Origin: a virus
Virus record (IMG/VR): IMGVR_UViG_3300007735_001031
Location: 1-64,000 of that record
DNA length: 64,000 nucleotides
Direction: 5' to 3' (one strand)
Below, one piece after another: positions 232 through 14,209 of this stretch. The position numbers and the translations under genes were made by a program. The notes beneath the pieces are model-generated. The model was not told where the DNA came from. It ran no database searches and worked only from the letters and a program-made list of their open reading frames with translations. Within the stretch, counting starts at the first letter, position 1, and every line of letters starts with the position of its first letter.

Positions 232-257
232 GATAACCTCCGAGGATTGTTAGGGTT

Positions 258-476
258 TTACTTTCGGCCCATGTCGATGGCTTCCTTGCGGAAACTGAGA
301 GGAGCTTTCGCCCACTCTTTCCCCCACTTGGCAATCTCCTTGTCCAATGCGGGCTTATTCTTTACCATCCACTTCACAAGGTTAGGCTGCGTGGGATCTT
401 TCCGCATAGCAGACCAATACTTGTAGAGCGTTGGGAACTTGTCCTTATCAATCGCAGACATAGGAACCATGCTCAA
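258..476 (-). CDS. hypothetical early protein
   Basis: ORF track; coupled to the upstream ORF. Confidence 0.7.
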   Translation of the reverse strand: MSMVPMSAIDKDKFPTLYKYWSAMRKDPTQPNLVKWMVKNKPALDKEIAKWGKEWAKAPLSFRKEAIDMGRK

Positions 477-655
477 CCTCGCTTGTTGGTTGGGAGTTTA
501 TCCATCACATAGTCAACCACATTCACAAGGACAATCGCTGTCGCCATACGACCGAGAATGTCGAAGGCTTCGGCTTCGATTCCACCCATGCGAAAGGCAT
601 AAACAACTGCGATGAACAGGAAGGCCGCGATAGCACTATTCATTAGTAGATGCAT
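473..655 (-). CDS. small membrane protein (2 hydrophobic segments)
   Basis: ORF track; GGAGGT SD; hydrophobic stretches. Confidence 0.75.
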   Translation of the reverse strand: MHLLMNSAIAAFLFIAVVYAFRMGGIEAEAFDILGRMATAIVLVNVVDYVMDKLPTNKRG

Positions 656-677
656 GGAACCTCCCGAGATTGTTGGA

Positions 678-890
678 TTACTTCCCCTCGACCTTATGCT
701 TGAGGAAGAACACGGTTTTCTTCAACGACACGAACTGCCGAGCAGTCAAGGGGTTTCCCTCCTCGACTTGGAGTTCAAGGGACTTCACAAAGTCCGGCTT
801 GAAGTCAGCCACTTGCGGGCCAAGCTCCTTTGCCTGAGCAATCCACTTCTTATGAACCTCAAGGTACTTCATGCCCTTTTCATTCATCAT
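678..890 (-). CDS. hypothetical early protein
   Basis: ORF track; AGGAGGT SD in repeated leader. Confidence 0.75.
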   Translation of the reverse strand: MMNEKGMKYLEVHKKWIAQAKELGPQVADFKPDFVKSLELQVEEGNPLTARQFVSLKKTVFFLKHKVEGK

Positions 891-935
891 GATAACCTCC
901 TGAGATTGTTAGAGTTATTGTTTCATATTCCTTAG

Positions 936-1007
936 CTCCCCGAGTTGGATTCGAACCAACAACCTGAAAGTTAACAGCTTTCTGCTCTGCCATTGAGCTA
1001 TCGGGGA
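936..1007 (-). tRNA. tRNA-Asn(GTT)
   Basis: TCCCCGA/TCGGGGA acceptor, AAAGCT-GTT-AACTTT anticodon arm, GGTTCGAATCC T-arm. Confidence 0.95.
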
Positions 1008-1011
1008 ATCG

Positions 1012-1095
1012 CTTGTGCCGTCAGGACTTACGGAAACGTGCGAACCATCATCGTTTCCCGCCTAATACCAGTGGGTTATTGGTTGACGGCACAAG
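1012..1095 (-). ncRNA. candidate structured RNA (three-way junction)
   Basis: perfect 12-bp closing stem CTTGTGCCGTCA/TGACGGCACAAG enclosing two hairpins; intergenic. Confidence 0.5.
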
Positions 1096-1114
1096 TACCT
1101 TTGAGATCGGGGAG

Positions 1115-1300
1115 TTAGAACTCAAACCCAATCTTCTTCTTGGTTTTCATCTTGCGCTCTTGTTCAATCATTCTCTGTTTCTCGGCTTCCTTGCGCTTTG
1201 CGTGCTCTGCCAGTGCCACTTGCCATTCCTCGCCCTCTTGCCTAATCAATTCCACCACTTGCTCCAACACCTTGATTCGAAAGTTGAATACCCCATTCAT
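1115..1300 (-). CDS. hypothetical early protein
   Basis: ORF track; GGGAGGT SD. Confidence 0.7.
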   Translation of the reverse strand: MNGVFNFRIKVLEQVVELIRQEGEEWQVALAEHAKRKEAEKQRMIEQERKMKTKKKIGFEF

Positions 1301-1314
1301 TCTAACCTCCCGAA

Positions 1315-1515
1315 TTAGTTGGGTTGTGAGTGCTCAAACAGCAGGTCGCCCGTTTCCCCTTGGATAATGCGGACTCTGCCCTCCATCGCAAGTTGGAGAA
1401 GCGCAAGGCCAACTTCCTGCTGAACAGGATTCGTCTCAGCCTTTACCTCACTTGCGAGTCGGGCGAACAGCGGGTCGTAGTCCAAGTGAAACTGAAGGAG
1501 TTCCATATTCAGCAT
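1315..1515 (-). CDS. hypothetical early protein
   Basis: ORF track; GGAGG SD in repeated leader. Confidence 0.7.
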   Translation of the reverse strand: MLNMELLQFHLDYDPLFARLASEVKAETNPVQQEVGLALLQLAMEGRVRIIQGETGDLLFEHSQPN

Positions 1516-1558
1516 CGTAGCCTCCGAGAATGGTTAGGGTTTGTGATTCAGCTTTCCT

Positions 1559-1642
1559 TTACATATCGAGGACATAGATGGCGATAGCCAAGCCAGCGAT
1601 AACAGGGAGAGCCAGAACAGAGCCGAGCATAACGATCATCAT
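1559..1642 (-). CDS. 27-aa single-pass membrane peptide (MMIVMLGSVLALPVIAGLAIAIYVLDM)
   Basis: manual translation; AGGAG SD upstream. Confidence 0.6.
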   Translation of the reverse strand: MMIVMLGSVLALPVIAGLAIAIYVLDM

Positions 1643-1665
1643 TGGGTTTCTCCTTTCGTTGAAGT

Positions 1666-1731
1666 TCAGTCAGGATGGGCAATTGCGACCATCATAGGAA
1701 ACGCAATCACCACGAACACATACCACGGCAT
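1666..1731 (-). CDS. 21-aa hydrophobic peptide (MPWYVFVVIAFPMMVAIAHPD)
   Basis: manual translation; GGAGGT SD in repeated leader. Confidence 0.55.
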   Translation of the reverse strand: MPWYVFVVIAFPMMVAIAHPD

Positions 1732-1781
1732 CGCAACCTCCGATTATTGTTCGGGTTTCCAGCTTCGACACGCTTTCCTAT

Positions 1782-1877
1782 CCGCTTCCTTTCGCTTATC
1801 CAAGTGCGTGCCGCTCTTGCGGAATCTCATTCCCGCAACGTAGGGATTGCGCTTGGGATCCGCCTTCGTGGAAGCGG
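1782..1877 (-). ncRNA. candidate structured RNA (long interrupted hairpin)
   Basis: nested stems CCGCTTCC/GGAAGCGG, CCAAGCGC/GCACTTGG (one mismatch), TTGCGG/CCGCAA; intergenic. Confidence 0.4.
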
Positions 1878-1889
1878 TAATCTTCTTGC

Positions 1890-2051
1890 TCACTTGCCGC
1901 CTCGCAGATAGTTGTTGAACCGAGCCGAGTAGATCGACGCGGAAAGGTTATTGTGATAGGCACGTTCCGCCAGATAAGCGGAAAGCCACGGATTCTTTGC
2001 GGTCAGCTTCTCGACCAGCTTGAGGTAATCCTTACGCTTCTCGTTCTTCAT
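1890..2051 (-). CDS. 53-aa hypothetical early protein (MKNEKRKDYLKL...)
   Basis: manual translation; GGAGGT SD in repeated leader. Confidence 0.7.
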   Translation of the reverse strand: MKNEKRKDYLKLVEKLTAKNPWLSAYLAERAYHNNLSASIYSARFNNYLRGGK

Positions 2052-2078
2052 GGGGAACCTCCGAAGATTGTTTAGGGT

Positions 2079-2243
2079 TTAGAAGTCGGTGCAATCATAC
2101 GCAAGCCAACGATCTTCACAATCGTCGCAACTGCAGAACTCGTCAGCAGAATTGTAGAACGAAGCATAAGCCTCATCCTCCGCACGGATCTGCTCCATCA
2201 GTTCGATCATAGCAGAATCGTCCATGTTATCAAAGTACTTCAT
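2079..2243 (-). CDS. 54-aa highly acidic early protein
   Basis: manual translation MKYFDNMDDSAMIELMEQIRAEDEAYASFYNSADEFCSCDDCEDRWLAYDCTDF; AGGAGGT SD. Confidence 0.7.
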   Translation of the reverse strand: MKYFDNMDDSAMIELMEQIRAEDEAYASFYNSADEFCSCDDCEDRWLAYDCTDF

Positions 2244-2256
2244 GAAACCTCCTGTT

Positions 2257-2634
2257 TTACTGGTAGAAGCTGAGTTCGCGTTGAAGATCAGCGAGTTCTG
2301 AGTTGAGCTTGGCGATTTCCTCTTTCACTTCAGCGATCTGCTCCATGATCCGTTGTTCTGGCGTCTTGCGACGTTGCAGACGACCGATCCTTTCAAGCGT
2401 GGGGAACGTGGCTTCCAGAGAGCCAAACCACTTCTTGGAATCCCCACTTGCGTTTTGTTCATCGACAACGAAACCGTTGTCCCACCAATAGATCTCGAAA
2501 GCACTGATTCGATCACGGTATTCCATCGGATTGGTGAAACGAGCGCCACCAACAGCAGTTGGCTCAAACGCTTCGTATCCTTGAGCCATTGGGAATACGT
2601 GATTCAGTTGATCGCAAACGTAGTTCTGCTTCAT
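2257..2634 (-). CDS. hypothetical early protein with C-terminal coiled coil
   Basis: ORF track; start moved to MKQNY after AGGAGGT SD. Confidence 0.75.
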   Translation of the reverse strand: MKQNYVCDQLNHVFPMAQGYEAFEPTAVGGARFTNPMEYRDRISAFEIYWWDNGFVVDEQNASGDSKKWFGSLEATFPTLERIGRLQRRKTPEQRIMEQIAEVKEEIAKLNSELADLQRELSFYQ

Positions 2635-2670
2635 TGGAACCTCCTGCAATCATTGAGGGTTTGTAAGTTA

Positions 2671-2745
2671 TGGTGTCCCCAGCGGGAATCGAACCCGCGT
2701 TGCTGGATTGAAAGTCCAGAGTTCTAACCGCTGAACTATAGGGAC
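2671..2745 (-). tRNA. tRNA-Glu(TTC)
   Basis: cloverleaf, CTGGA-CTTTCAA-TCCAG, encoded CCA. Confidence 0.95.
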
Positions 2746-2833
2746 TTGGCGAAGGCTTTGGACTTTGCTCGCTTATAGCCCTCGATAACTGGGCGAGCGC
2801 ACTACGTTTTGAGGCACAACGCAGAAACCTTAG

Positions 2834-2906
2834 TGGATTGAGAGGGGATCGAACCCACGACAAACGGATTAAGAGTCCGCTGCTCTACCAACTGAGCTAT
2901 CAATCC
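2834..2906 (-). tRNA. tRNA-Lys(CTT)
   Basis: cloverleaf, GCGGA-CTCTTAA-TCCGT. Confidence 0.95.
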
Positions 2907-2908
2907 GA

Positions 2909-3049
2909 GGTGTTGGAAGGGCTAACCGCTGCCTTATCGGTGGTCTGCCCTTTCGTGCTCCAACATCACGCCTTATGCTTAGGAAGCCCAACTTGCGGCA
3001 ACCACGCCGCTTCTCATCGTGGAGTTAGCTACCACTATTCAGCGGTTAG
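2909..3049 (-). ncRNA. candidate pseudoknotted RNA
   Basis: crossing helices 2909-2922/2947-2967 and 2922-2931/3040-3049 plus small hairpins. Confidence 0.4.
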
Positions 3050-3065
3050 GCTGAAACGTAAGTCC

Positions 3066-3144
3066 GAGTTGGACGCTTGTGAGGGGCAAGCTCACATTCC
3101 GCAATATTCTTGCGGTCTTGCGCTTAGATGAAAGCGTCCAACTC
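3066..3144 (-). ncRNA. candidate structured RNA abutting the tRNA-Ile 3' end
   Basis: 13-bp closing stem GAGTTGGACGCTT/AAGCGTCCAACTC with two internal hairpins. Confidence 0.5.
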
Positions 3145-3221
3145 TGGTAGGCTTGGGTGGACTTGAACCACCGACCCCCGCTTTATCAGAGCGGTATTCT
3201 AACCAACTGAACTACAAGCCT
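3145..3221 (-). tRNA. tRNA-Ile(GAT)
   Basis: cloverleaf, CCGCT-CTGATAA-AGCGG, encoded CCA. Confidence 0.95.
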
Positions 3222-3224
3222 AAC

Positions 3225-3682
3225 GCTAGTTTCATGAAAGGATGAGCCTTATTCAAACCAGCAAAGTTCAGGCTATCCGCTTGTTTCATAACTTCCTCCG
3301 AGAACAAGCAAACGGCGGGAAGTGCCGGTTCATAATAACCTTTCCCCTATGAACCGGCAAGTTCAGGGAAAGACCGCCTATCTTATCAACAATCCGCATA
3401 CGATGGGCAACTTTGCGAATTGTCAAGGTTGATCTAACGCACAACCATTCCGCCACCTTGAGGATCATGGTTATTCGGTTGCTGCTTTCAATAACTTACA
3501 GGCAGCGAAGCGCAACTGAACTGCCTGCTAAGTGCTGATTGTCTTTTACGATTTCACAAGCAATCGCAACTTGTGGAAAGGGTTAGCTTGACGGTGCGTG
3601 CTAACCGACGCTGTTGCTTCGCGTTTCAGCCGAAGCGGGGAGGCTGCCTTTATTGGGTTGGCAGCAAACCCTATGAAACTGC
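3225..3682 (-). ncRNA. candidate large (~460 nt) ornate structured RNA
   Basis: closing stem AGTTTCAT/ATGAAACT, about ten internal helices, apparent pseudoknots, no credible ORF. Confidence 0.6.
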
Positions 3683-3736
3683 TTCTCTTGCCTACCTCCG
3701 GCAAAGCCTTTGGTATCGCCTCAGCAGCTTCCTTTG

Positions 3737-3831
3737 TGATTCTGTGAGGTTGCGGTTATCAGCAGATTCCCAAGCGGAATCCCGACTTGCCCCTGCTCTG
3801 TTGCAGGCTTCCCCGCAACCCCACAGAATCA
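3737..3831 (-). ncRNA. candidate structured RNA (three-way junction)
   Basis: 19-bp closing stem with one G-U (valid on minus strand), hairpins CCTGC/GCAGG and GATTCC/GGAATC. Confidence 0.5.
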
Positions 3832-3838
3832 TTGGAGA

Positions 3839-4621
3839 CTACGCCTCGACTTCGAGGCTCACATCGTCATCAGTCTCAACGGCTTCCGCCTCGACGCCGA
3901 TCTCGTCGCTGTCGTCGCTCGCGTCCACATCGTCAGCCTCGCCAGTCGAAGCCTCAACGATTTCCGCGAGCTGGTCGCGCTGCTCGGTGAGATCACGAAC
4001 CTGCGAGCGCAGATCCGCAACGACCTTCAGCAGTTCCGCCTTGGTCAGCTTGTCGTCCGACTTGCCGCCGTTGGCAGCGATAGCCGCCGCAGCCTCGGGA
4101 TTCAGGAGCTTACCCGTCGCATCGCACTCGAACGCGAGCTTGACCTTCGACGGACGGCCAATGCCAAACGCTTCCACAGCGTTAGTCTCGGGGTTGATAA
4201 ACGTGCGGGGAGTCTTAGTCTTAGTAGCCATCTTGTTCACCTTCTTGGAGTTAGAAACAACCTTCGTATCATCGCCAGCTTGCACCGTGCGAGCCGCGAT
4301 ACCTTCCACAACCTTACCACCTTCCGCAATCAGCGTCAAGGCGGCATCATTATTCGCAATCCGCAGAACCATACCATACTTGGATTGCACAGGAACCACA
4401 ACGCCACGGTTTCGCAGGTTGGAAACCGCCACTTCTACCTTCACCTTCGCCCGCTCCTCATCCTTGTTGAAGTCCTTGAGAATACGAGCATCCTTCGCAA
4501 CGGCGAGCGTGGAAGCACCGTTGCGCTTTTCGGTCAGCACCGTCAGAACCTTTGCGTACATGGGGAGTTCCGACTTGCTGTAGAGGAAGTCACCGACCTT
4601 GATAGTGTTCGTCATAGTCAT
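3839..4621 (-). CDS. early protein with coiled coil and very acidic C-terminal tail
   Basis: ORF track; true start MTMTNT after GGAGGT SD (track extension runs through tRNA-Arg). Confidence 0.85.
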   Translation of the reverse strand: MTMTNTIKVGDFLYSKSELPMYAKVLTVLTEKRNGASTLAVAKDARILKDFNKDEERAKVKVEVAVSNLRNRGVVVPVQSKYGMVLRIANNDAALTLIAEGGKVVEGIAARTVQAGDDTKVVSNSKKVNKMATKTKTPRTFINPETNAVEAFGIGRPSKVKLAFECDATGKLLNPEAAAAIAANGGKSDDKLTKAELLKVVADLRSQVRDLTEQRDQLAEIVEASTGEADDVDASDDSDEIGVEAEAVETDDDVSLEVEA

Positions 4622-4647
4622 TGGAAACCTCCGTACTTTGTTAGGGT

Positions 4648-4710
4648 TTAGTCGCACCAGAAACTTTCGTCGTAAATCCAAGGACAAAGCTGCCAGTCGA
4701 TCTGAATCAT
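4648..4710 (-). CDS. 20-aa peptide (MIQIDWQLCPWIYDESFWCD)
   Basis: manual translation; full copy of the repeated leader with GGAGGT SD. Confidence 0.5.
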   Translation of the reverse strand: MIQIDWQLCPWIYDESFWCD

Positions 4711-4737
4711 CGGAACCTCCGATTATTGTTAGGGTTT

Positions 4738-4814
4738 TGGCCTGCTTGGTAGGATTCGAACCTACGACCCTGTGCTTAGAAGGCACATGCTCTATCCAAC
4801 TGAGCTACAAGCAG
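4738..4814 (-). tRNA. tRNA-Arg(TCT)
   Basis: cloverleaf, TGTGC-CTTCTAA-GCACA, encoded CCA. Confidence 0.95.
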
Positions 4815-4959
4815 AACGCTCTTTCGAGCAAAGACACCGTGTTTCCGCACCCTTCCGCTCCGCTTCCCTCATCGACTTCACCTTTCAGCGTGCTTTCGCA
4901 TACTTAGGGCTTCACCAGAGTTCCACTTCACTTTCAGGCACTTCCGCACCTTGGTTGCT

Positions 4960-5028
4960 AGTGTAGGGTTCTCGCAGTCTTGCGCCCTGCGGCCACAACC
5001 TATGGCAATTCATAGGCATATCTACACT
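4960..5028 (-). ncRNA. candidate structured RNA (three-way junction)
   Basis: AGTGTAG/CTACACT closing stem; CCTATG/CATAGG and CGCAG/CTGCG hairpins. Confidence 0.4.
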
Positions 5029-5064
5029 CGTTCTTGCAGAAGTCGCTGACTTCGCAACCGCTTT

Positions 5065-5079
5065 CAGTTGTCATAGAGC
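5065..5079 (-). promoter_or_regulatory. boxA-like antitermination element
   Basis: GCTCTATGACAACTG ~45 nt downstream of a -10 box; resembles rrn boxA GCTCTTTAACA. Confidence 0.55.
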
Positions 5080-5122
5080 TACGCATCGAGGCGAACCCGC
5101 TGCGTCGTCGTTCGGTCTGCTC

Positions 5123-5151
5123 AGTATACACCGGGCAGCGTCCCTTGTCAA
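5123..5151 (-). promoter_or_regulatory. sigma70-type promoter
   Basis: TTGACA-17-TATACT. Confidence 0.9.
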
Positions 5152-5244
5152 GCCCCGGAACTACGCGGAATCTTTCGATTCGCTTTCGTTCCGCACACTT
5201 TCAGTTCGGGAGCGAACCGCTTAGGCTCACTCGCTCACCCTGCC

Positions 5245-5273
5245 AGTGTATCAGGCTCCGCGTCCGTTGTCAA
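5245..5273 (-). promoter_or_regulatory. sigma70-type promoter
   Basis: TTGACA-17-TACACT. Confidence 0.85.
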
Positions 5274-5367
5274 GCCCGCTAACTACTCGGATTCACTAGG
5301 AACCCTTTGGCTTCGCTTGGCTTCGAGGTCGGGGGCGAACCGCTCAGGCTCGCCGCTTGACCCCTTC

Positions 5368-5396
5368 ACTATACCGCAGACCGGGGAGGCTGTCAA
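5368..5396 (-). promoter_or_regulatory. sigma70-type promoter
   Basis: TTGACA-17-TATAGT. Confidence 0.85.
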
Positions 5397-5509
5397 GCCC
5401 CCGAACTATCGGGAATCATTCGATTCCCTTTCGGTCTGCTTCGCATCGAGTTCGCAGGCTACTTTCGCAAGCAACACGCGAGGTTCGATCGAACGCGAGG
5501 GAAACTGCC

Positions 5510-5524
5510 CAGTTGTCAAAGAGC
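5510..5524 (-). promoter_or_regulatory. boxA-like antitermination element
   Basis: GCTCTTTGACAACTG ~35 nt downstream of a -10 box. Confidence 0.65.
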
Positions 5525-5559: not shown

Positions 5560-5588
5560 ACTATAGCGCCAACCGATCCCCTCGTCAA
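5560..5588 (-). promoter_or_regulatory. sigma70-type promoter
   Basis: TTGACG-17-TATAGT. Confidence 0.8.
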
Positions 5589-5589
5589 T

Positions 5590-6045
5590 AGCTGGAATCA
5601 TTGGCCTTTCCGCTAAGTAGTTGGAATCATTACGAAACTTTCTTTCTTAGTGGTTTCAGCGAGTTGGCGTAAGTCCTTGAAATCGTTTGCCCAGGTGCTC
5701 GTTTTCCTAACCTTTCGCGGGGTTGTGCGTAAGTCCTTGATTTCGCGTTTCGCAAAACGCGAAAATCCAGTGATTCCAAGGGGTTCGAAGCCTACGCGGG
5801 CGTGCGCGGTTAGAAGAACTGTATCACGAATTCGTAGGTCGCCAAGTTTATTGAGGAACGAATTCGTCGGTGTTAAAAAGTTAAAGGTTCTAATAAGTTA
5901 GGAACCTATTGAAACCACTGGAAAAGAGTGCTGCCACATAGCCTCGATGTGGCTACACTTGTTTTCGCGACTCAATACTTTCAGTAAGTTATAGCCCTTT
6001 GAAACCATTGAACTTTGGAAAACTTAATAGTTTCAGTAAGTTTCA
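5590..6045. repeat. non-coding array of IHF-site-like repeats
   Basis: CGTAAGTCCTTGA twice, 60 bp apart (5730-5742 matches WATCAANNNNTTR); TTTCAGTAAGTT twice; other degenerate copies. Confidence 0.55.
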
Positions 6046-6060
6046 AACTATTGAGGAATT

Positions 6061-6447
6061 TTAACATTCATGGATAAGTTCTTTGAAAGATTCCAAACGA
6101 ATAGAATTGAAACGAACATTATTAATCCAAATTCTTGGATCGTCGATTCGGACAACGTCGTATTCGTGGGTGATTCTAACCGAAGGCTCATTACGCAATG
6201 CAAAAGCGATAACAGGATTTTCTCTATCGGTCTTTTTTTGCTTTTTCCCAACTACAATGAATTGCTTGTCCAACCTGTCATTAACATAACACTCAAGGGG
6301 AGCAAAATTATTGGAATCAGGATCCTTGAAGTTGGTAAGCATAGGCTCCAGCTCAACCACATCCCCGATTTCAAAGATCTTGGAATCGAGGACATAATTA
6401 ATATCATCGCGTTTCTCGATATCGATTCTACGGTATAGGGTAGTCAT
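6061..6447 (-). CDS. hypothetical protein
   Basis: ORF track; same strand as neighbours. Confidence 0.65.
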   Translation of the reverse strand: MTTLYRRIDIEKRDDINYVLDSKIFEIGDVVELEPMLTNFKDPDSNNFAPLECYVNDRLDKQFIVVGKKQKKTDRENPVIAFALRNEPSVRITHEYDVVRIDDPRIWINNVRFNSIRLESFKELIHEC

Positions 6448-6486
6448 AGGGGGGTATAGTAGGGTAGTAGTAGGGTAGTAGGGTAG

Positions 6487-6693
6487 TTATGTAGGAATTG
6501 AAGTTTTACAGCTTATTTCATATCCGTATTTATACCAAATACTGAATAGTTGTGAAACCCAAGCAGGTCCATCTTCTCTATGAGAGAACCAAAAGTTATC
6601 GTAGTCATCAAACATTCCCCAGATCTTTACCGGCATGAGGTCTATACGATTATCTAATTTAATAGTTAATCTGGTTTGTTTCATATCAACCAC
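6487..6693 (-). CDS. small HREDGPA-motif protein
   Basis: HREDGPAW motif; tandem paralog of 6686-6895. Confidence 0.75.
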   Translation of the reverse strand: MVDMKQTRLTIKLDNRIDLMPVKIWGMFDDYDNFWFSHREDGPAWVSQLFSIWYKYGYEISCKTSIPT

Positions 6694-13846: not shown

Positions 13847-14209
13847 TGGTGGAGACGCCGCGAGTCGAACGCGGGTCTTGAATAATAATTGTAATCACTC
13901 ATTCACAGGAATAGCCAAACACCCAGCAGTTCAGCAGACCACCCAAAATATTGGGAACTTCATATGATTTTCTTTAAGGTAGAAACCATTAAAATAACCA
14001 ATTGTGGATATTCTTTTCGGCAGTATCCAAGCTTATCCAAACTTATTTTACAGAGCGTTTGGCAACTCCGTTTAACTAAGCTGCTAGAGCGTAATTAAAA
14101 GTTTCAACATTATCGTTGGCACTTAAACATTTCAGCGTTTTTACGATGCCACGCTGCCCATCGTCCTGCATAATTACAAATCTTACCCAATCGAAACCAG
14201 TTCGTCCCC
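13847..14209 (-). ncRNA. ssrA: tmRNA
   Basis: 5' GGGGACGAACTGGTTTCGA, 3' GTTCGACTCGCGGCGTCTCCACCA with G3-U; tag ORF ANDNVETFNYALAA* at 14120-14076. Confidence 0.95.

Follow-up and report, generated by a model that had tools for sequence, protein, structure and literature searches.

GOLLD and ROOL are large structured RNAs of phages and prophages that often lie near islands of transfer RNA (tRNA) genes; GOLLD combines a conserved 3′ region with a 5′ region that varies, and it can carry covalently linked tRNAs, as described in a preprint (bioRxiv 10.1101/2024.12.08.627333). Here we describe an element located in the tRNA operon of a large freshwater phage, whose IMG/VR virus record IMGVR_UViG_3300007735_001031 (72 kilobases, kb; 39% complete) was analyzed over its first 64 kb, hereafter called the window. 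The phage encodes a DnaE-type DNA polymerase, GroEL, ribonucleotide reductase, a transfer-messenger RNA (tmRNA) and 14 tRNAs, and the 14 tRNAs of the window and the tmRNA are all on the minus strand. Bases 1 to ~5950 constitute a distinct island with small open reading frames (ORFs) and five tRNAs, in which the order on the minus strand is promoters, tRNA-Arg, a gene for a 260-amino-acid (aa) protein, 617 nucleotides (nt) at 3838-3222 without a convincing gene, tRNA-Ile, a 238-nt spacer, tRNA-Lys and tRNA-Glu. The element (~450-615 nt) is read from 3838 to 3222 on the minus strand, between the 260-aa gene and tRNA-Ile, and it very probably represents a real family of structured RNA that is new to the catalogues. 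It shares with GOLLD a conserved 3′ domain, a variable 5′ part and an abutting tRNA, in a phage and near tRNA genes, a likeness of context and not of homology. The element is shorter than GOLLD and ROOL, and in place of a multi-junction fold it strings small H-type pseudoknots together in a linear chain.

In tmRNA, several consecutive H-type pseudoknots (PK1-PK4) stand beside the tRNA-shaped part; the element is likewise a string of pseudoknots near a tRNA, but its ends are not joined into a tRNA-like domain. The Escherichia coli 3′ETS-leuZ sponge and the stable RNAs C and D of phage T4 are freed from tRNA transcripts by tRNA-processing enzymes, but these RNAs are ~50-140 nt long and, unlike the element, are not pseudoknot arrays. 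At the 3′ ends of tobacco mosaic virus (TMV) and turnip yellow mosaic virus (TYMV) an upstream pseudoknot domain is followed by a tRNA-like structure, which recalls a row of pseudoknots followed by a tRNA shape; however, these are genomes of eukaryotic RNA viruses and not an operon of a DNA phage, and no homology is expected. In MALAT1, RNase P cuts at the tRNA-like mascRNA and leaves a structured, protected 3′ end. MALAT1 is nuclear and eukaryotic, and a triple helix protects it, whereas in the phage element the protecting structure would be a pseudoknot and RNase P would make the similar cut.

Homologues of the element were reached only via the flanking protein; searches with the DNA itself or with sequence patterns did not succeed. 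When 2600-4900 was compared by blastn with 50,697 phage records, all matches were of tRNA size and covered ≤6% of the query, and pattern scans of viral contigs with two RNA motifs gave 1 and 5 matches, none of which resembled the RNA. A single-sequence search with the 260-aa protein found nothing in viral contigs, and its family alignment A1, built from 25 of 38 clusters of homologues (43-100% identity), recovered two viral and 13 metagenomic loci. The two viral loci, L091 and L092, are distant and keep the synteny, with no RNA similarity detectable by blastn. In every locus in which the upstream side is present, tRNA-Arg(UCU) precedes the 260-aa gene, and the stretch that follows this gene is poor in genes, structured and terminated by a tRNA or a tRNA-like element. 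Two of the loci belong to phages whose DNA polymerase is 86% and 77% identical to that of the window phage, whereas the flanking protein is only 46% and 40% identical, and the island has the same location in phages with 77-86% identical DNA polymerase. The island is therefore part of this phage lineage, with an evolutionary rate far above that of the core genes. The relative closest by DNA polymerase, G001, was uninformative because its record ends before the island.

The predicted architecture of the element is a chain of H-type pseudoknots, in which the loop of a hairpin pairs with the strand just downstream of that hairpin. A sequence-only reading of the window had proposed a single closed, ornate fold of ~460 nt at 3225-3682, perhaps extending to 3831, next to tRNA-Ile. 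The extension to ~3831 was borne out, and the RNA does adjoin the tRNA; the strand, which had been left unstated, is the minus one, which places tRNA-Ile right after the 3′ end of the RNA and not before its start. The helices listed at that time are present, with 101 Watson-Crick, 3 G-U and 2 mismatched pairs over the 15 helices checked, and nine of 11 are kept in metagenomic relatives. Six of these nine carry compensatory changes (GCTGCC/GGCAGC, GCTTCG/CGAAGC, GGTTAGC/GCTAACC, CACAAG/CTTGTG, CAGGCAG/CTGCCTG and AACCAT/ATGGTT), and three are kept but invariant (TCAAGGT/ACCTTGA, GCTTGTT/AACAAGC and the 12-base-pair (bp) helix 3323-3334/3348-3359). The proposed pairing of the loop of the 12-bp helix with 3365-3372 proved to be a real pseudoknot (PK4 below). 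The supposed closing of the molecule from end to end did not hold: the pairing 3228-3235/3673-3680 occurs in the window only, its 5′ partner differs in L093 and L098, and its 3′ partner is used instead in a conserved pseudoknot with 3255-3263. The long-range helix 3261-3268/3409-3416 was lost as well: its 3409-3416 side is part of a hypervariable hairpin, and neither L093 nor L098 keeps the complementarity. In place of a closed fold, the comparison revealed modular H-type pseudoknot units of ~55-60 nt, which are gained and lost between relatives.

Read from the 5′ side on the minus strand, the chain begins 8 nt past the stop codon of the 260-aa gene with a long hairpin, H0 (3737-3831), which is expanded in the window phage. 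All relatives have a hairpin here, and alignments and a hand table show compensatory changes in its basal stem, and the H0 region shows a 112-column gap against the versions of L093 and L098. H0 has no U-tract and may be a processing site or a 5′ cap. A second hairpin (3675-3731) is found in the window version only, as part of the 112-nt insertion, and RNA contigs of relatives omit 3673-3738 or 3673-3816. Then follows the type I unit (3616-3673; 58 nt), in which a C-rich linker of 6 nt connects an H-type pseudoknot to a hairpin whose loop measures 9 nt; its stems are S1 (3667-3671/3655-3659), S2 (3660-3665/3643-3648) and a 6-bp hairpin stem (3631-3636/3616-3621). Type I units measure 58-59 nt, with an S1 of 4-5 bp, a loop of 1-2 nt (usually 1), an S2 of 5-6 bp, a third loop of 6-10 nt, the 6-nt C-rich linker and the 6-bp hairpin with its 9-nt loop, and this geometry recurs in 10 of the 12 units that were picked automatically.

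The type I unit is followed by two or three hairpins and a further four to five pseudoknots. Hairpin H3 (3581-3606) is 100% paired, with one pair changed from A-U to G-C, and hairpin H4 (3536-3575; stem 3570-3575/3555-3560) has four of six pairs changed on both sides. A tentative pseudoknot between the H4 loop (3561-3566) and 3536-3541 contains one mismatched terminal pair in the window. Hairpin H5 (3499-3527) has one compensatory pair and possibly an invariant pairing of its loop with the downstream strand. Pseudoknot PK2 (3423-3472) is formed by S1 (3467-3472/3443-3448), in which four of eight pairs are compensatory against L101, and the crossing S2 (3455-3461/3423-3429), which is invariant. 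The hypervariable hairpin H7 (3414-3422/3390-3398), with four of six pairs compensatory against L101, forms a common region with PK3 (together 3376-3422), in which the conserved loop 3402-3408 pairs with 3376-3382; this pairing is perfect in L093, L098, L101 and the RNA contigs (G>A at 3405) and has one mismatch in the window. PK4 (3324-3372) consists of the loop pairing S1 (3366-3372/3340-3346) and the long helix S2 (3348-3358/3324-3334); both stems are invariant in close relatives, and in L101, aligned by hand, S2 shows two compensatory pairs, one bulge and one mismatch. Hairpin H9 (3279-3309) does not vary among close relatives, whereas L101 lacks it in this form. The chain is concluded by PK5 (3224-3278), where the loop (3255-3263) of a hairpin (3270-3278/3240-3249) pairs with the 3′ tail (3224-3232), and this tail helix stops 2 nt short of tRNA-Ile. 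In PK5, a G-U pair is G-C in L093, and the helix is kept in L101 with two pairs changed on both sides (by hand).

Covariation was then evaluated against shuffled and displaced controls. Over ten type I units, 99.1% of the cells were paired and seven of 11 pairs had changed on both sides, a level reached in 0/500 shuffles, whereas controls with slid partners were 29-43% paired. S2 covaries in four of five pairs, and S1, which fits no single column register, covaries in three of five according to a hand table of nine units; the unit thus has the crossing stems with compensatory change that characterize the H-type class. For the 3′ domain, four sequences including L101 gave 27 pairs, 97.2% paired, of which eight were compensatory, four in PK2-S1 and four in H7 (0/500 shuffles). 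For the whole RNA, three close relatives gave 90 pairs in 13 helices, 99.3% paired and nine compensatory (0/500). On the minus strand every wobble pair is G-U (in the 3′ domain, 11 of 108 cells), whereas the plus strand would give A-C, which implied that the RNA is on the minus strand, in agreement with the tRNAs, the gene and the promoters. A crude pseudoknot counter, which scores hairpin loops that pair with the strand close downstream, found 10 clusters in the element, compared with 2.72 ± 1.71 in dinucleotide shuffles, of which 0/200 reached 10. It gave 9-16 clusters in L093, L098, L101 and L095 (each 0/200), seven in L096 (2/200), one each in the short stretches of L100 and L103, not above shuffles, and six on the plus strand (9/200). 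Taken as comparative evidence, the covariation among four sequences is good evidence for the fold, short of proof.

The nucleotide sequence itself appeared to be under strong constraint. In a comparison of the window with L093, identity is 93.9% for the flanking gene, where 31 of 261 codons differ synonymously and 13 by replacement, whereas the 3′ domain without H7 is identical at 250 of 254 positions, loops included, which indicated that the 3′ domain is more constrained in nucleotide sequence than the neighboring protein gene. H7 is identical at 44 of 58 positions, with compensatory changes. The number of units varies between relatives. The type I unit is present in every related locus examined, and its covariance model, R1, found a single copy in the window and in each of the related loci listed; it also gave an independent match in L092 (19.5 bits), a locus outside the model building. 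In L091 and L100 a second type I copy stands in tandem. L093, L098 and L101 have an extra pseudoknot unit within a 73-column segment that the window lacks, and L095 and L096 have different pseudoknots at this position. Neither indel, at 73 and 112 columns, has a length divisible by three. BLAST between units detected no self-similarity, and loop motifs were judged paralogous by eye alone. The one match of a pattern scan of genome contigs, in Caldovatus sediminis, was rejected as chance, as it agreed with only the hairpin half of R1 in DNA of 72% GC.

The sequence occurs in RNA libraries as a joint piece. Parts of 2907-3838 were found in 22 listed public runs, 18 of them recorded as RNA, with rows that span 19 studies. 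Four river metatranscriptome assemblies from four studies were aligned to the window, and contigs of 446-823 nt covered 2927-3540, 2967-3540 and 3092-3499 at a word depth of 20-38, joining the 3′ domain, tRNA-Ile and the tRNA-like element that follows it. Contigs over the flanking gene had a word depth of 2.9-9.8, and one contig bridges the 260-aa gene and the type I unit.

These observations led us to lean towards a released structured RNA that acts in trans as the best explanation of the whole. The element lies in a tRNA operon, and RNA contigs, which cannot reveal cleavage, join it to tRNA-Ile and to the gene. The RNA would be co-transcribed with tRNA-Arg, the protein gene and the downstream tRNAs from sigma-70 promoters at 5121-5439, and a cut by RNase P at the 5′ end of tRNA-Ile, which is the probable origin of the 3′ end, would free it. 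This end would be buried in PK5, beyond the grip of 3′ exonucleases, and the long hairpin after the stop codon would mark or protect the 5′ side, giving a stable trans-acting RNA of the early host-takeover region. The fact that the chain ends in a tRNA-like element in other lineages fits a tRNA-shaped 3′ processing handle, and the rapid gain and loss of units in a phage lineage that is conserved in other respects would suit an accessory or arms-race role. More tentatively, the RNA could serve in trans as a decoy or scaffold: the repeated units would be several copies of one binding surface, making it multivalent, and its target would be a host or phage factor that recognizes tRNA-like or pseudoknot shapes. 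Candidates for the factors soaked up may be a tRNA-targeting defense nuclease, ribosomal protein S1 or the SmpB/tmRNA machinery, in which case unit turnover would reflect an arms race. The full combination, i.e., a new class of phage RNA with an array of ~58-nt pseudoknot units, maturation via a tRNA or tRNA-like 3′ handle, expression early in infection from tandem promoters in the style of an rRNA operon and a role as trans-acting decoy or self-assembling scaffold, remains speculative, and we would not expect all its parts to hold together.

The main rival explanation is a cis-acting structured spacer or 3′ untranslated region without a function of its own, which we regard as possible but rather unlikely. 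Its pseudoknots would insulate and order the processing of mRNA and tRNA and, after RNase P cleavage, shield the mRNA of the winged-helix protein from 3′ exonucleases. This is in keeping with the constant position of the element between the protein gene and a tRNA or tRNA-like element, with the type I unit that stands once per locus always just past the 260-aa gene, with the RNA contigs that bridge gene and RNA, and with modules that are freely gained and lost, the 3′ domain being absent in L091. However, loops and linkers are nearly invariant as well as stems (the 250/254 positions set against 93.9% in the coding sequence), and ~450 nt with five or more pseudoknots far exceed what protection of a 3′ end needs. 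In addition, contig depth over the RNA, a weak measure, was 2-13 times that over the gene in the four runs.

Several points weigh against the reading as a released trans-acting RNA. The contigs show no ends, strand or level, their depth cannot rank genes, and DNA may contaminate the libraries. The fold z-score, which is better than that of shuffles, is −3.9 for the minus strand and −4.5 for its complement; as both strands fold equally well, folding energy alone says little and cannot separate the strands. PK2-S2, PK3-S2, PK4-S1, H9 and, in close relatives, PK4-S2 never vary and are uninformative, and the loop pairings of H4 and H5 were identified by eye alone. The window supplied the first reading of the helices, so the controls are biased towards it, and only four full-length sequences are distinct (window, L093, L098 and L101), L094 and L102 being duplicates of two of them. 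The 3′ domain is missing from L091 (record G006), although the DNA polymerase of this phage is 86% identical, which suggested that this domain is dispensable or replaceable. Finally, a 60-aa frame (3286-3468, minus strand) is open in the window and in L093, and the several 1-nt indels in a variable patch leave its length unchanged.

The last point belongs to a second rival explanation, according to which the locus is a small-protein gene, encoded by this 60-aa frame or by a 25-aa frame at 3212-3289, and the structure is incidental. The sequence-only reading had seen no credible ORF, which was nearly right: the 60-aa frame is open in the three closest relatives and not in L101, which keeps the helices without the AUG and has stops in frame, its own frame being 31 aa from a TTG. 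In the window, the AUG of the 60-aa frame lies within helix PK2-S1 and has no Shine-Dalgarno sequence, both substitutions that fall in the frame outside the variable patch alter the amino acid, and a library of 5.8 billion predicted proteins contains none that shares words with the frame. A strong Shine-Dalgarno sequence, similar to the conserved leader of the island, precedes the 25-aa frame, whose GGAGG and AUG lie in the H9 loop at the spacing seen in genes of the island, but this frame runs through PK5 into tRNA-Ile and its counterpart has only six codons in L101 and L102. Translation of this frame from H9 may disturb folding or processing. Covariation with G-U pairs is an RNA signature, and a coding function as the explanation of the locus is very improbable.

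A third possibility, that the element is a highly diverged GOLLD, ROOL, tmRNA, RNase P RNA or group I intron, draws on its context, which is that of GOLLD and ROOL in phages near tRNA islands, and on a string of pseudoknots that recalls tmRNA. The Rfam 15 cmscan of 3222-3838 gave nothing at gathering score. Four cmscan runs were made, three of them at relaxed thresholds and one of these three on relatives: at E ≤ 10, with 1.7 kb and 0.9 kb around the element on both strands, only snoRNA, miRNA and tmRNA noise appeared, and at E ≤ 1 nine related loci gave no GOLLD, ROOL or other family. GOLLD (RF01998) produced no row at gathering score or E ≤ 10, ROOL (RF03087) produced none in any run, and RNase P RNA, group I and II introns, OLE, HEARO, raiA and riboswitches had no match in Rfam 15, none of OLE, RNase P and introns giving a row at E ≤ 10. 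The tmRNA model (RF00023) aligned over 3264-3458 with 5.6 bits (E 7.9), which is noise at a gathering threshold of 47. Moreover, the phage already has a full tmRNA at 13847-14209 (minus strand; 119 bits; tag ANDNVETFNYALAA), the only tmRNA called by ARAGORN and one to which the element shows no similarity, and the element has neither a tRNA-like domain joining its two ends nor a tag frame. The relative G001 also encodes a tmRNA, with tag ANDNVAFDYAVAA. As no Rfam model matches at gathering score or E ≤ 10, the element was placed outside known families, and hidden membership in one of them is highly unlikely. The earlier suggestion of a new or divergent giant RNA therefore stands in so far as the element is conserved, covarying, ORF-poor and without an Rfam family, and falls in so far as evidence for a divergent GOLLD or ROOL is lacking. 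Among the entries listed by a full-text literature search, none described a phage RNA of this type. Decay of tRNA or tRNA-like genes into a remnant without present function, which ~58-nt units among tRNAs, the degenerate T-loop of the tRNA-like element in the window and the fast island turnover might recall, is just as implausible in view of strong sequence constraint with compensatory changes, units that are pseudoknots and not cloverleaf fragments, and the absence of any tRNA call by ARAGORN or Rfam in 3222-3838.

On its 3′ side the element abuts tRNA-Ile(GAU) (3145-3221, minus strand), which has an encoded CCA, and directly after this CCA follows the tRNA-like element (3050-3144, minus strand) with a 13-bp terminal stem and a degenerate, non-canonical T-loop. 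Homologues of the latter were located at 1275-1342 in L095, 1588-1662 in L100, 5036-5110 in L091, 4961-5036 in L092 and ~3840-3900 in L103, and in L091, L095 and L100 the chain ends in such an element. In these other lineages it has a canonical T-arm, seemingly an 8-bp acceptor followed by G-CCA, and odd anticodon loops. The Rfam tRNA model gave 34.2 bits for 1275-1342 of L095 and 49.2 bits for 4961-5033 of L092, and ARAGORN labels the elements of L091, L092 and L100 as "tRNA-???". With regard to a Y-RNA-like reading of the tRNA-like element, Ro60/TROVE and RtcB were absent from the 72-kb record, which is 39% complete. The whole 238-nt spacer between tRNA-Ile and tRNA-Lys folds well (z −3.4), and its length in relatives is 676 nt (L093), 9 nt (L098) or 3 nt (L101); window positions 2907-3049 (minus strand) are 79% identical to 1466-1547 of L095.

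On the 5′ side, the operon is preceded by three tandem sigma-70-type promoters within direct repeats of ~122 nt (family D3; 5121-5439, minus strand), with the sequences TTGACA-17-TATAGT, TACACT and TATACT and scores of 10-11 of 12; seven promoter-like sites were found against 1.7 expected. A possible fourth promoter, TTGACG-17-TATAGT, was read by eye at ~5568-5596 (minus strand). The tandem arrangement resembles that of an rRNA operon. The RNA contigs of four runs all stop at 5524, with none over 5675-6500, for which divergent flanks may be the cause. The leader between promoters and tRNA (4815-5125) is not unusually structured (z 0.15), and the first RNA of the operon is tRNA-Arg(UCU) (4738-4814, minus strand), which precedes the protein gene wherever the locus includes the upstream side.

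The 260-aa protein (family alignment A1; 3839-4621, minus strand) is always encoded immediately 5′ of the RNA and combines an N-terminal winged-helix fold with a long helix, an acidic tail and an invariant FGxGRPSKxKLAxE motif, which we presume to resemble AT-hook or H-NS-like DNA-binding loops. The AF2 model of the protein has a pLDDT of 72, Foldseek gave weak MarR/PadR-like matches (best E 3.9e-3), and no Pfam or PHROG family was found for it. PHROG and Pfam gave nothing for the ten small proteins of the island either. The GC content is 50-53% in the island and 32-52%, mostly <42%, in the remainder of the window, with the shift at ~5950. The record and the relative G006 are both labelled "provirus", perhaps owing to the host-like appearance of the tRNA-rich island. 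A 23-nt leader, AACCCTAACAATnnTCGGAGGTT (≤3 mismatches), is common to seven gene starts at 235-4736 (minus strand), with 0 expected by chance; it occurs nowhere else in the window and has no exact site in IMG/VR. Just beyond the island boundary, a short tandem repeat of a TAGGGTAG-like unit is located at 6436-6483.

On comparative grounds, the element appears to be an RNA family that is absent from the catalogues and is of a general kind already known, with a small sampled distribution. Neither Rfam nor phage databases revealed it, and only the adjacent protein led to it, which points to a general blind spot. GOLLD and ROOL are abundant, RNA-only cages for which a function is still missing, and the element offers a more tractable model, as its units are separately deletable and its 3′ end is predicted to the nucleotide. 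If our reading is true, it would be a third, unrelated family of large RNA in the tRNA-island niche of phages, with a simpler, repetitive build and a link to tRNA processing, and this niche would repeatedly breed big RNAs instead of having been settled by chance by one lineage.

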